This document shows positions 12,001 to 21,000 of a stretch of DNA of 64,000 nucleotides, piece by piece. Numbering within the stretch: the stretch's first letter is position 1; the number at the start of each line of letters is the position of its first letter. The position numbers were made by a program. Origin of the DNA: Escherichia coli (lineage in GTDB: Bacteria > Pseudomonadota > Gammaproteobacteria > Enterobacterales > Enterobacteriaceae); NCBI RefSeq assembly GCF_003991155.1, contig NZ_CP031293.1, one strand, 5' to 3'.

Positions 12001-15000
12001 AAACCTTACGCAATGTTCTGTGTATGCTGACCTTGCTTAATCGCACCGATATTCCGGTAGCAAGCGGTGCGGTAAAACCATTAATGCGTGATTTGATTAT
12101 CGCGGACAATGTGCACGGCGAAAGCGGTCTCGACGGCCCGGCATTACCGGAACCGACGTTCGCACCGCAAAACTGTACGGCGGTGGAGCTGATGGCGAAA
12201 ACGCTGTGTGAAAGTGAGGAACCTGTCACCATTGTTTCTACCGGACCGCAAACTAACGTTGCCTTGCTGCTCAATAGCCACCCGGAACTGCATAGCAAAA
12301 TTGCCCGTATCGTGATTATGGGCGGCGCAATGGGGCTTGGTAACTGGACGCCTGCGGCTGAATTTAATATTTACGTTGACCCGGAAGCGGCAGAAATTGT
12401 CTTCCAGTCAGGGATCCCGGTGGTGATGGCCGGTCTGGATGTTACTCACAAAGCACAAATTCACGTTGAGGACACCGAGCGTTTCCGCGCCATTGGCAAC
12501 CCTGTTTCAACCATTGTTGCCGAACTGCTGGATTTCTTCCTCGAATATCATAAAGACGAAAAATGGGGCTTTGTCGGCGCACCGCTGCATGACCCATGCA
12601 CCATCGCCTGGCTGTTAAAACCGGAGTTGTTTACCACTGTTGAGCGCTGGGTTGGCGTGGAAACACAAGGGAAATATACCCAAGGTATGACGGTTGTTGA
12701 TTATTATTATCTGACTGGCAATAAACCGAATGCCACTGTAATGGTCGATGTTGATCGTCAGGGCTTTGTTGATTTACTGGCCGATCGTCTGAAATTTTAC
12801 GCTTAACACACGTCATTGATTAAGATCACCACGCGTTACCTGGGTGGTCTTAATCTGTTTATCTCTTTTTCTTTCAAGATATAAATGCAATGGATAATGC
12901 AGAACTCGCCATTGGTATCGATCTCGGTACTACCAATAGTTTAATTGCCGTCTGGAAAGACGGTGCCGCGCAATTAATTCCAAATAAGTTCGGTGAATAT
13001 TTAACACCATCCATAATTAGCATGGATGAAAATAATCATATTTTAGTCGGAAAACCGGCTGTATCACGGCGTACTTCGCATCCGGATAAAACGGCAGCGT
13101 TATTTAAACGTGCAATGGGCAGTAATACCAACTGGCGGTTAGGCAGCGACACATTTAACGCGCCAGAACTGTCCTCTTTGGTATTACGCTCATTAAAAGA
13201 AGATGCCGAAGAATTTCTGCAACGTCCGATTAAAGATGTGGTGATCTCCGTTCCGGCTTATTTCAGCGATGAACAACGCAAGCATACCCGTTTAGCAGCG
13301 GAGTTAGCCGGGTTAAATGCGGTACGCTTAATTAATGAACCCACAGCAGCTGCGATGGCATATGGCCTGCATACGCAACAAAATACCCGCTCGCTGGTTT
13401 TTGATCTCGGTGGCGGCACGTTTGACGTCACGGTGCTCGAATACGCCACGCCGGTGATTGAAGTTCACGCCTCCGCTGGCGACAACTTTCTTGGCGGCGA
13501 AGATTTTACTCATATGCTGGTGGATGAAGTTTTAAAACGCGCCGCAGTGGCTAAAAACATGCTCAACGAAAGTGAGCTGGCAGCCCTGTACACCAGCGTG
13601 GAAGCGGCAAAATGTAGCAATCAATTACCGCTGCAAATTAGCTGGCAGTATCAGGAAGAAACGCGTGAGTGCGAATTTTACGAGAACGAACTGGAAGATT
13701 TGTGGTTGCCGCTGCTCAATCGCTTGCGAGTGCCGATTGAACAGGCGTTGCGCGATGCACGTCTGAAGCCAAGTCAAATCGACAGTCTGGTGCTGGTTGG
13801 CGGCGCATCACAAATGCCGCTGGTGCAGCGAATCGCCGTGCGTCTGTTTGGCAAATTACCGTATCAAAGTTACGATCCGAGCACCATTGTCGCGCTGGGC
13901 GCAGCAATCCAGGCCGCCTGCCGCTTACGCAGTGAAGATATTGAAGAAGTGATCCTCACTGATATTTGCCCCTACTCCTTAGGTGTTGAAGTTAACCGCC
14001 AGGGCGTTTCCGGCATTTTCTCACCGATTATTGAACGAAATACCACTGTGCCGGTGTCGCGAGTAGAAACTTACTCGACCATGCACCCGGAGCAGGATTC
14101 AATAACGATTAATGTTTATCAGGGAGAAAATCACAAAGTTAAGAATAATATACTGGTTGAATCCTTTGATGTTCCGCTGAAGAAAACCGGGGCTTATCAG
14201 TCTATTGATATTCGCTTTAGTTATGATATTAACGGATTGCTTGAAGTTGACGTGCTTCTGGAAGACGGCAGCGTTAAGTCCAGAGTCATTAACCACAGCC
14301 CGGTAACGTTAAGTACCCAGCAAATTGAAGAGAGTCGGGCACGGTTATCCGCATTAAAAATTTATCCGCGCGATATGCTCATCAACCGTACCTTTAAAGC
14401 CAAACTGGAAGAGTTATGGGCGCGGGCGCTGGGTGACGAGCGAGAAGAGATTGGCCGGGTAATCACCGATTTTGATGCGGCGCTGCAATCAAACGATATG
14501 GCCCGCGTCGATGAAGTTCGTCGACGGGCGAGCGATTATTTGGCCATTGAGATCCCTTAAACACGGCTGCCGGATGCGGCGTAAACGCCTTATCCGGCCT
14601 ACTCGAAGGTCGGATAAGATGCGTTAGCATCGCATCCGACGTTGAAGGATAAGATGCGTTAGCCTCACATCTAACTGAACAACATCGCGATTTTACCGAT
14701 CGCGTAACCTATCACCAGCACCGTTAAGCTGATTTTGATAATGCTGGTAATGCTCTGTGGTTTTTCATCCTCATCATTTTTTTCTTCGTGGTTTTCAGGT
14801 GTTGGCTCATCGACATCTTCATCCTCCGGCTCGAGTTTCACTTTCGTCAACAGCATCCGCGTGATAATGGCCTCTAATGGATGAGCATCTCCACCTTCCA
14901 GCCTTGTATTAAGACGGGCCAGCATCTCTTGTTTCGGGAACGCTTCCAGCACAACCTGTTCCGCTACCCGATACAAATCCAGTAACGGTGAATCTTGTTC

Positions 15001-18000: not shown

Positions 18001-21000
18001 TCACCACTAACGGGTAATAATCGACCCGATGCTGACGGCACCATTGCAACATTAAAGCATCCGCCTGGGTGGAGGGATACTCGCGCCAGTAGTCACAAAG
18101 TTCTGCCAGCAGGCTTTCGCCTTCTCCACAATAGACGCGTTGCGCGTATTCATAATAACGCGCATCTTCATTATCAGGTTCAGCTTCCCGCCACGACCGG
18201 GCGTAATCCAGAAGTTCGGGGATATCCAGACGGCTTGTGCTATACCAGCGGAGTAAATTTCTGTGCAAATTTGCATCATCGGGGATAATCACTGCGCGAT
18301 GTTGCGCTAAATACAATGTCAGCCATTCTGGATGCGATGACCAAATCCGAGCGAACATTTGGTAAAAATCAATGGTGTCATTTTGTACGGCAACGGGCAG
18401 ATGCAGAATGGTCTGGAAGTTAAAAACATTCCCCTTCGCAATGGCATATAAAAAGGATTCCAGTTCTTCTTCGTCTATTTCCCCGACGTTTTCCTCCTGC
18501 AACCACCGCAATCTTTCTGCTAATAACACCACGCACTCGAAGGATAAATGGGCAGTGTTCATGGCTATTGTGCACAGCGACCAGCGTAATTCATCAATAT
18601 CTTCCATCGAGCAATAATTTAATTGCTGAATGAATCGCTGCCAGGCAGAGGGCAGAAAACGTTCGCTATCAGAGGCGAGTAACGCACGAAAGGCGAGCAG
18701 AATTTCATGTTCTGCAACTTCATGTTCTTCTGGTTGCCAAACAGATTTAGCAGGCGACTGCGCAATCCGTAGCGCGTCCTCATACGCCTGACGAAGTTGT
18801 TTAAAACCCTGCGGATCGGTTTCTGGATGAAAGGACGGTAACAGCGCCAGATAAGCGCGGCGGATAATATCGACGTCAGTCGTTTCCTCTATTTCGAGAA
18901 TCTTCCAGCAATTTTTCATAGGTCGCTCATATCCTTAAGCGTTTCCGGGCATGTGGGGTAGTCAGCCAGTGGTTGCCAGGGTAAGGTCGCGTAATATGCA
19001 TCGTCACTGGCAAATAATTGATAAAACATATCATTGCCGGAATCGTCGTATTCTTTACGCGCTAAGAATTCACGTAATAAAGGCAGATCATCATCCTCGG
19101 GAGACTGCCAATATTGCCGACCAAAGGTATAACCGGCAAAGTATTGCCGCCAGTGACTATAATAACGTAGAGCCCGTAGATGAATGCGCGACTGGATCCA
19201 CAGGCTTTCTTCTTCACTCAACCAGTTATTAAGTACGCCCATTCGGCTTAAAAAACCCATCCGGACATAATCCCAGGCTTTAATTCCTCCCTCACCACAG
19301 CATTCGGCGGTGCTGGCGACAAATTGCGCATAAGCCTGACCTTGCTCATTTAATTCAGCAAGATAGTCACGCCATTCACATGGCGAATAACGAAACCAGC
19401 AGTGATAAAACCCTGCCAACCGCGCGGCATGACCGTTATCAATCATTCGGTAAATTGTGCGCAGCAGGTCATCACGGTCATCAATTCTCCAGGAGGAAGA
19501 AAGGTCAAAAAAGCGTGTACCTAAATACATTTTGGGGGATGAATGCGAAGGTAAACAGCATTCATTGCGTATTTCCATCGGAGTGGAAAGTGCAAACAAT
19601 ATTTTTTGCGACTCCATGTCCATATAATTCATCCTTAAATATTCATTCAATGAATATTAACCACGTTGCGAGGCTCATTTATTTATACTTTTCTGACGCA
19701 ACATAATACGCATAAAATAAGGCTTACGCAAAAATGGAACACATAAAAATATAATATGTTTTATATGCAACCATAAGGAAATGATAATGATTTTTACGTC
19801 AAGTTGCTGCGATAATTTATCAATAGAAAAGATTGTTAAACGTGCTGAAAAAGGCGATAGCGAGGCTCAATATATTGTTGGGTTTTATTATAATCGCGAT
19901 AGCGCAATTGACTCTCCGGACGACGAAAAAGCCTTCTACTGGCTGAAGCTTGCCGCTGAACAAGGCCATTGTGAAGCACAATATTCCTTAGGGCGGAAAT
20001 ACTCCGAGGATAAAAGCCGTCATAAAGATAATGAGCAAGCCATCTTTTGGCTGAAAAAAGCTGCCCTACAAGGCCATACTTTCGCTTCCAACGCCCTTGG
20101 CTGGATACTGGATCGTGGAGAAGACCCCAACTATAAAGAAGCGGTTGCCTGGTATCAGATAGCCGCGGAGAGCGGAATGCCTTATGCGCAAAATAATCTT
20201 GGATGGATGTACAGAAATGGTAACGGAGTCGCACAAGACTATGCGCTGGCATTTTTCTGGTACAAACAAGCTGCATTACAAGGCCATAGTTACGCGCAAG
20301 ACAACCTGGCCGATCTCTATAAAGACGGAGAAGGCGTTGCTCAAAACAAGACACTCGCCGCATTCTGGTATTTGAAAAGCGCACAGCAGGGTAATCGGCA
20401 TGCCCAGTTTCAAATTGCATGGGATTATAACGCTGGCGAAGGGGTGGACCAGGACTATAAGCAAGCGATGTACTGGTATCTGAAGGCTGCCGCTCAGGAA
20501 AGCGTCGGCGCTTACGTCAACATCGGTTATATGTATAAACATGGACAAGGCGTTGAGAAAGATTATCAGGCCGCCTTTGAATGGTTTATGAAAGCCGCTG
20601 AATGCAATGACGCCACTGCCTGGTATAACCTGGCCATTATGTATCACTACGGAGAAGGAAGACCTGTCGATCTCCGACAGGCTCTCGACCTGTATCGTAA
20701 AGTTCAGGCATCCGGTACCAGGGATGTCAGTCAAGAAATCCGTGAGATTGAAGATTTACTGTAAGAGATAAAAACAAGGGCCGGGGAATTTTATTCGGCC
20801 CATATTCTCTTTATTGCTGTGCGAAATCAGACCATTAAGGCTCGAACGGGCGTCTCTGGAACTGGTCATGACCACATTTCGGGCATAGCGTCAGCACTTC
20901 CGGTGTGTAGATTGGGAGATGGAAATGACATTTCTCGCAGACCAGATTTCCCAGCCCTACCACTTCTCCGCTGTGATAAACCCCATGATGATTGAGGTCC

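Follow-up and report, generated by a model that had tools for sequence, protein, structure and literature searches.

The third Hsp70 system of Escherichia coli, formed in K-12 by HscC (Hsc62) and the J-proteins DjlC (Hsc56/YbeV) and DjlB (YbeS), is a known system: it is chromosomal, silenced by H-NS, and dispensable. In this study, the copy of the hscC locus on contig NZ_CP031293.1 (assembly GCF_003991155.1) of E. coli was analyzed within a stretch of 64,000 nucleotides (hereafter, the window) and compared with related loci in about 80 other bacteria. The biochemistry of the K-12 proteins goes back to Kluck et al. (2002), as summarised in a 2021 review: the ATPase of HscC is stimulated by DjlC, with no effect of DnaJ, CbpA or HscB, and HscC accepts a fairly broad range of peptides with positive charge (PMC8215388). 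DjlC is described as a tail-anchored inner-membrane protein (Peschke 2018, as cited in PMC8215388). Mutants lacking hscC, or both djlB and djlC, are sensitive to Cd2+, ΔhscC is sensitive to ultraviolet (UV) light, and the proteins of the system lie under the detection limit in exponential phase (PMC8215388). The J-domains of DjlB and DjlC typically carry the motif HPE, the sole tolerated variant of HPD (PMC10410713, PMC13254874), and it is tolerated in the HscC/Djl pair only (PMC13254874). The genes of the locus belong to the H-NS regulon, and in enteroaggregative E. coli (EAEC) 042 at 25 °C, mutation of hns upregulated a DUF1266 gene 308-fold (PMC7582179). After SlyA overproduction, ybeT was upregulated 4.1-fold and ybeU-hscD, listed as a single operon and a member of the H-NS regulon, 2.8-fold (PMC5797941). 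More than 20 years after its biochemistry appeared in 2002, HscC is the single E. coli Hsp70 without an assigned job; in reviews up to 2026, the Cd2+ and UV phenotypes are all that is listed, beside guesses at membrane clients. The silencing by H-NS suggests that laboratory phenotyping to date has probably under-sampled the function of the locus.

The window contains the K-12 system with the same genes, order and flanks (rihA and ybeL), and nothing in it differs in kind; the spacer between hscC and djlC, which holds repetitive extragenic palindromes (REPs) and whose length depends on the strain, is 110 bp here and 59 bp in K-12 DH1. RefSeq gives the order rihA, hscC, djlC, ybeU, ybeT, djlB, ybeR, ybeQ, ybeL, and a mechanical list of open reading frames (ORFs) agrees with its coordinates for the hscC block, so the genes, names and positions of a preliminary description of this DNA are borne out. 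The 8-kb segment matches E. coli strain 2016C-3878 (NZ_CP029747.1) at 100% identity and most other E. coli at approximately 96%. The series hscC–djlC–ybeU–ybeT–djlB–ybeR–ybeQ is therefore an already known, named locus, and as a system it is not novel. The new part is a refinement: a core of three genes (DUF1266, Djl and HscC) is found across many Gammaproteobacteria, together with fusions among its parts.

As judged from gene neighbourhoods, the conserved core encodes a cytoplasmic DUF1266 protein, a Djl J-protein and one HscC. A scan of one genome per species with a single peptide pattern returned 78 loci from Escherichia, Klebsiella spallanzanii, Rahnella, Erwinia, Pectobacterium, Gilliamella, Marinobacter, Bowmanella and over 50 species of Pseudomonas. 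Wherever the flanking sequence suffices, a gene for a cytoplasmic stand-alone DUF1266 protein is followed by a Djl-type gene and then by an HscC-type Hsp70 gene, the last usually convergent. Clustering of all flanking ORFs yielded three families common to different genera, namely Djl (78 loci), DUF1266 (65) and HscC (64), and no fourth family conserved between genera. The Djl start and the DUF1266 stop overlap by exactly 4 nt in 73 of 77 pairs. Word-index protein searches returned Enterobacteriaceae only, and an exhaustive profile search reached further; the three genes also stood together around distant DUF1266 genes (20-38% identity to YbeU), subfamilies at 20-25% identity included, in all seven look-ups with enough flank, and some of these distant loci have the co-directional order Hsp70–Djl–DUF1266. 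The linkage of DUF1266 to hscC/djl is also seen in Salmonella, Citrobacter, Shewanella and several metagenome lineages. The preliminary description had proposed a dedicated Hsp70 system that includes the DUF1266 proteins, and had held that DUF1266 genes unlinked to hscC/djl outside E. coli would speak against it; the gene-neighbourhood comparison finds the linkage far outside E. coli, and the proposal clearly survives. A partner gene conserved beside J-protein and Hsp70 genes across lineages is also the arrangement of HscA, HscB and IscU. No paper found by literature searches presents DUF1266 as the constant third component, or Sel1 as an occasional fused or adjacent one.

Fusions join the same parts in other ways. 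P0364, a protein of 497 aa from one metagenome contig, carries a Djl-type HPE J-domain, TPR repeats and a C-terminal DUF1266 domain in a single chain. In a Shewanella-type contig, two DUF1266→Djl pairs, each with an ATGA overlap, flank one Hsp70 gene; these two adaptor pairs around one Hsp70 represent an independent acquisition. The Djl proteins of this contig have no membrane segment and end in Sel1 repeats that match YbeQ (E 4.7e-40 and 6e-28), and an annotated protein of Shewanella sp. NFH-SH190041 is 79% identical to the Djl–Sel1 form. Outside Enterobacteriaceae, Djl proteins are about 890 aa long and end in a DUF805 membrane domain (2-3 helices), not in a single tail anchor. The C-terminal module of Djl thus differs by lineage, being a tail anchor, DUF805, Sel1 or DUF1266 itself. 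The HPE motif and the signature HPE.DP.GF..LR.AYE.A are kept in the Djl-type proteins inspected individually, with few exceptions: a Marinobacter Djl, the Djl of locus L091 (NPE) and one Shewanella-type paralogue. The last, a Djl–Sel1 fusion at L090:2361-4586 on the Shewanella-type contig, reads …KHTPSENN… without HPE, and its sequence suggests a J-like protein that may be unable to activate Hsp70.

Against the NCBIfam models of DnaK and HscA, HscC of the window scores 378-388 bits, far under the cut-offs of 620-822, which indicates that it is neither protein. Its length lies in the range of full-length Hsp70 proteins distinct from DnaK and HscA (an actin-like NBD plus an SBD, about 550-580 aa), RefSeq annotates it as 'molecular chaperone HscC', and its tail is poorly conserved at the extreme C-terminus. 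Compared with the K-12 DH1 counterparts, HscC has 12 differences in 556 residues and DjlC 16 in 483. In E. coli AR_0069 (L004:4278-5948), hscC is a pseudogene with an internal stop, and both adaptor pairs and both Sel1 genes are intact.

DjlC and DjlB share 49.7% identity across their full length. A structure model of DjlC has a J-domain at residues 1-54, a TPR/HAT-like solenoid at about 70-430, a disordered linker at 432-456 and a tail-anchor helix at 458-482. The N-terminus has the helix II, HP(D/E) loop and helix III of class C J-domain proteins of the HPE variant. Each protein has a single hydrophobic segment, at its C-terminus (DjlC 458-476, DjlB 449-467) and nowhere else; one C-terminal transmembrane helix and no signal peptide are the marks of a tail anchor, and the membrane anchoring previously attributed to the J-proteins is confirmed in this form. 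DjlC gives only a sub-threshold match to the DnaJ model; its relatives are assigned to Pfam PF27158 ('DjlB_C_2nd'), and sequence and profile searches of PDB with a Djl alignment returned weak J-domain matches only. The possibility that the central region of Djl is a diverged DUF1266 domain was rejected (hhalign probability 1.6%).

The DUF1266 proteins YbeU and YbeR are 60.9% identical over 235 aa, so that the paralogy of the two modules that the preliminary description had seen holds for both genes of the DUF1266/Djl pair. The overlap it had reported is likewise present at both junctions, which read CTATGAAAA: the TGA stop of the DUF1266 gene and the ATG of djl share 4 nt (ATGA). YbeU matches DUF1266 (PF06889) over residues 41-216 (E 4.4e-45), and its relatives are all annotated as PF06889. 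The predicted structure is a confident, compact all-α fold; sequence and profile searches of PDB with DUF1266 found no match and no solved relative, CbpM included. An acidic C-terminal tail is conserved among the YbeU-like proteins. Fragments 95-98% identical to E. coli ybeU, at a contig end of Paenibacillus sp. USDA918EY (L013) and in a Trichuris trichiura protein model named 'DnaJC13' (AFDB A0A077ZGN2), most likely stem from contamination with E. coli DNA or from chimeric gene models.

Taken together, the linkage, overlap and fusions make it reasonably probable that DUF1266, Djl and HscC form a three-gene machine in which the DUF1266 protein is a client, or client-recognition subunit, on a Djl scaffold. 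The tail anchor attaches Djl to the inner membrane on the cytoplasmic side, and hydrolysis of ATP by HscC is triggered by the J-domain of Djl (PMC8215388). The DUF1266 protein is translated in step with the Djl scaffold through the ATGA overlap. The scaffold comprises the J-domain, the TPR-like solenoid and a variable C-terminal 'address', and the solenoid may hold the DUF1266 protein, so that HscC would act on one defined partner and not on unfolded proteins generally. The two adaptor pairs of E. coli, Salmonella and Citrobacter, ybeR-djlB and ybeU-djlC, would share one HscC, which may provide two specificities; YbeQ and YbeT would be lineage-specific accessory scaffolds of the HscC machine. 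The closest analogy is HscB presenting IscU to HscA, where a specialised Hsp70 and an exclusive J-protein with a helical non-J scaffold likewise share a conserved cluster with a small partner. However, the parts are not homologous beyond the Hsp70 and J-domains, Djl is membrane-tethered with HPE in place of HPD, and the DUF1266 protein, whose binding to Djl/HscC is presumed, has no known cofactor or Hsp70-binding motif. A weaker likeness is to Hop, CHIP and SGT, the eukaryotic TPR co-chaperones that bind EEVD tails: TPR/Sel1-type solenoids are here linked to an Hsp70, and the acidic tail of the YbeU-like proteins may serve as a peptide that docks into a TPR or Sel1 groove. The resemblance to Hop, CHIP and SGT is an analogy only, and the HscC tail, as noted above, is poorly conserved at its end. 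The co-encoded DUF1266 proteins and the fused DUF1266/Sel1 modules turn an open search for clients into a focused question on YbeU, YbeR, YbeQ and YbeT, and DUF1266, a large family with a confident fold and no solved relative, gains its first functional context.

Several points weigh against a DUF1266 client or recognition subunit. The single-pattern scan was biased toward YbeU-like sequences, and the linkage of the triad was counted from the DUF1266 side outward. The DUF1266 family comprises 953 representative clusters by exhaustive profile search, of which many members are secreted or multi-domain; the many secreted multi-domain ones have no J-protein, indicating that the domain is not intrinsically part of a chaperone. 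The Sel1 genes are absent from most loci and are thus not core components, and the Cd2+ and UV phenotypes single out no particular client. Among the papers searched, only one mentions DUF1266, and none ties DUF1266 or Sel1 proteins functionally to HscC; searches found no published test of a physical interaction of DUF1266 with Djl or HscC.

Translational coupling at a 1:1 ratio and strict co-occurrence would suit a stoichiometric regulator as well as a client. A DUF1266 protein that gates the access of HscC to the J-domain would resemble CbpM, an operon-encoded, J-domain-specific inhibitor of CbpA (PMC8215388), since both J-proteins are co-transcribed with a small family-specific partner; the loss of HPE in one Shewanella Djl paralogue also suggests that regulatory variants exist. 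However, CbpM is encoded downstream and inhibits a co-chaperone of DnaK, whereas DUF1266 is encoded upstream of its J-protein, is translationally coupled to it, and belongs to a system with its own Hsp70. DUF1266 also has no similarity in sequence or fold to CbpM, or to any solved protein, and in P0364 it is fused at the far C-terminal end of the J-TPR protein, which places it away from the J-domain. A regulatory role is therefore considered unlikely.

Transmembrane clients were proposed in the 2021 review on the grounds of tail anchoring and of the sensitivity of ΔhscC and ΔdjlBΔdjlC to Cd2+ (PMC8215388), and the fairly broad set of positively charged peptides bound by HscC would suit a general chaperone of membrane proteins, such as those of metal efflux, with the DUF1266 and Sel1 genes as unrelated neighbours. 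However, three observations are not to be expected of unrelated neighbours: the 4-nt overlap, retained in 73 of 77 pairs; the conservation of no other genes with Djl and HscC from genus to genus; and the fusions to Djl-type J-proteins. This explanation appears very unlikely.

The history of the block in Enterobacteriaceae was traced through its site. The chromosomal site between rihA/gltL and ybeL is the same in Escherichia, Salmonella, Citrobacter and Klebsiella spallanzanii; the last has a single pair and no Sel1 gene, beside ybeL. In Salmonella and Citrobacter enshiensis, ybeQ is divergent from one four-gene operon DUF1266–Djl–DUF1266–Djl, ybeT is absent and hscC is convergent. YbeR/DjlB are the orthologues of the pair near ybeQ and YbeU/DjlC those of the pair near hscC, which indicates that the DUF1266–Djl pair was duplicated as a unit before the genera split. 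HscC is 82% identical to its Salmonella and Citrobacter orthologues; between E. coli and Salmonella, identity falls to 60-63% for the DUF1266 proteins and to 43-53% for the Djl proteins, so that the adaptors diverge much faster than the Hsp70. The Salmonella locus also contains an ORF of 413 aa between hscC and rihA (L087:16094-17335), with no Pfam or PADLOC match and no E. coli counterpart. E. albertii, E. marmotae, E. fergusonii and the cryptic Escherichia clades also carry the block. In Escherichia sp. MOD1-EC7003 (L009:3648-5003), two ORF fragments between ybeL and ybeQ make up a third, degenerate Djl-like copy, suggesting that adaptor genes have been repeatedly gained and have decayed in Escherichia.

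Within E. coli, frequencies were estimated from 40 evenly spaced rows out of 5,455 matching records and are rough. Approximately 58% of the sampled genomes align over the full block, and about 10% more are split at the REP; one split record that was inspected is complete, with hscC as a pseudogene. About 10% lack djlB, ybeR and the 5' part of ybeQ. Loss of this module by recombination between the paralogues was considered and rejected, because the deletion inspected has one end inside djlB and the other inside ybeQ and is a simple deletion. In about 17%, including Nissle 1917, sequence type (ST) 1193 and avian pathogenic E. coli (APEC) strains, the rihA–ybeL interval is empty; a search for block remnants in B2 strains found none in the 44-bp rihA–ybeL spacer of Nissle, which is unlike either block edge. 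Because the same site is occupied in Klebsiella, Citrobacter, Salmonella and the other Escherichia, the absence of the block from B2 strains is best read as loss, and on this comparison of loci the block is ancestral at its chromosomal site. Relative to K-12 DH1, the ratio of nonsynonymous to synonymous substitution rates (dN/dS) is 0.04 for hscC and 0.10-0.20 for the other six genes; by this measure, all seven genes of the block are under purifying selection within E. coli.

The preliminary description had further read the block as an old horizontal acquisition and as a possible surveillance system. The first view is not supported. The site is fixed, from Klebsiella and Citrobacter to Escherichia, and phage or genuine-plasmid carriers are lacking: no YbeU-like gene was found in 2.9 million viral contigs, phage genomes gave two unannotated fragments only (1.5 and 2.6 kb), the E. 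coli 'plasmid' matches were mostly records of 0.28-4.9 Mb that resemble mislabelled chromosomes plus one record of 113 kb, and on plasmids a Djl-like gene occurs only on non-mobilizable Erwinia megaplasmids. No integrase, insertion sequence (IS) or tRNA lies in or beside the block, which shows none of the mobility genes, tRNA/att sites or variable location of a genomic island, and in Pseudomonas the flanks are housekeeping genes such as nirB, leuC, rdgC and dusC. The REP cluster, which had been placed at the border of the block, consists of a pair inside it, between hscC and djlC; the segment has approximately 20 matches per E. coli genome and is a genuine multi-copy element. Since the REP pair lies inside the block and varies in length between strains, it provides no evidence for horizontal transfer.

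Surveillance received no direct support. In a conflict system, for example against phages, the fast-evolving Djl, DUF1266 and Sel1 proteins would detect a foreign or damaged protein at the membrane, with HscC as the executor of the response. The variability within E. coli (the complete locus in roughly 58-68% of genomes, loss of module 2 in about 10% and no locus in about 17%, the B2 strains) would fit such a role, as would silencing by H-NS and de-repression by SlyA, which many horizontally acquired and defence genes share, and an adaptor identity between E. coli and Salmonella (45-63%) well under the 82% of HscC. Some distant loci lie amid small ORFs of no known function, and in one (L097:161-1021) a WYL/BrxR-type regulator lies two genes upstream of the Hsp70–Djl–DUF1266 operon, the sole defence-flavoured neighbour in any locus seen. 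However, PADLOC (PADLOC-DB v2) gave no match for HscC, DjlC, DjlB, YbeU or YbeR and only weak TPR-type noise to PtuA for YbeT and YbeQ (E 1e-3 to 1e-4), and among the distant-locus neighbours tested and a rhomboid protein encoded in the window it recognised the WYL regulator only. No nuclease, pore or NADase-type effector is encoded, dN/dS is far under 1, and the fixed site, the housekeeping flanks and the absence from viral contigs, phage genomes (bar the two tiny fragments) and genuine mobilizable plasmids argue against conflict. Literature searches found no phage-defence or other new role of HscC. A conflict function is considered improbable. In a more speculative form, the triad would be a membrane-based surveillance or abortive-response machine whose adaptors recognise a foreign (phage, toxin) or damaged protein that HscC remodels; this is rated as highly improbable. 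If true, it would account for silencing by H-NS, for the presence/absence polymorphism and for the duplicated adaptor pairs, as well as for an old observation, namely that HscC overproduction reportedly perturbs σ70 activity.

The Sel1 proteins differ from the core in distribution. YbeT has an N-terminal hydrophobic segment (residues 5-23) and three Sel1 repeats (64-169), tandem units of about 36 residues; YbeQ has eight repeats (Pfam PF08238, each E ≤ 4.4e-4) and no hydrophobic segment. Their similarity (31-41%) is confined to the level of the repeats, and from the sequences it is not clear that ybeT and ybeQ are duplicates of each other. The 'identical architecture' earlier ascribed to the two modules therefore applies to the DUF1266/Djl pairs and does not extend to the Sel1 genes. 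Orthologues of YbeQ occupy the same position in Salmonella (52.6% identity) and Citrobacter (59.7%); YbeQ is conserved in Escherichia, Salmonella and Citrobacter only, ybeT occurs in Escherichia loci only, and no YbeT- or YbeQ-like gene was found in the Pseudomonas, Erwinia, Gilliamella or Klebsiella loci examined. A linkage of Sel1 genes to hscC/djl thus stands for ybeQ in Salmonella and Citrobacter and for the Djl–Sel1 fusions of Shewanella, and fails in the other loci examined, which have no Sel1 gene.

The AT-richness noted in the preliminary description is real and modest: the block has 46.8% GC, compared with 51.4% in the left flank, 49.5% in the right flank and a window median of 49.7%, and 15% of the non-overlapping same-size windows within the 64 kb are as low or lower. 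Its low points are the two divergent promoter regions (27-28%). No Rfam family matches inside the hscC block. The features of the locus are listed in Table 1.

Table 1. Features of the hscC block and its adjoining terminator-like hairpin (window positions)
Feature	Position	Strand	Description
hscC	12890..14560	+	Specialised Hsp70, 556 aa
Two REP-type palindromes	14561..14670		Between the convergent 3' ends of hscC and djlC
djlC	14671..16122	-	HPE-type J-protein, 483 aa
ybeU	16119..16826	-	DUF1266 protein, 235 aa; ATGA overlap couples ybeU translation to djlC
Divergent ybeU/ybeT control region	16827..16927		26.7% GC
ybeT	16928..17482	+	Small Sel1-repeat protein, 184 aa
djlB	17492..18919	-	djlC paralogue, 475 aa; HPE J-domain and tail anchor 449-467
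ybeR	18916..19623	-	DUF1266 paralogue, 235 aa; ATGA overlap with djlB
Divergent ybeR/ybeQ control region	19624..19780		28% GC
ybeQ	19781..20764	+	Cytoplasmic Sel1-repeat protein, 327 aa, 8 repeats; RefSeq start 19787
GC-rich terminator-like hairpin	20778..20801	+	Between convergent ybeQ and ybeL

Other parts of the window yielded minor observations. Between lnt and gltI (6205-8082, minus strand), in a patch of low GC (39% at 8000-8499), is the gene for a 625-aa 'rhomboid family intramembrane serine protease'. About 60% of E. coli genomes carry this gene, and it has no PADLOC match; K-12 has IS5 at its position. In the metagenome loci L007 and L008, a Zn-ribbon+rhomboid gene adjoins the DUF1266–Djl–Hsp70 operon, possibly by coincidence. 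The most AT-rich part of the window (33-35% GC at 59-60.5 kb), well below the hscC block, is the area of the overlapping genes ybdN (PAPS-reductase-like) and ybdM (IbrB/ParB-like) at about 58318-60140 on the plus strand. Rfam matches elsewhere in the window are the small RNA (sRNA) sroC in the gltI–gltJ spacer (9440-9602), a cspA-type thermoregulator upstream of cspE (38793-39241), the rnk leader (52220-52328) and STnc70 (56091-56184).

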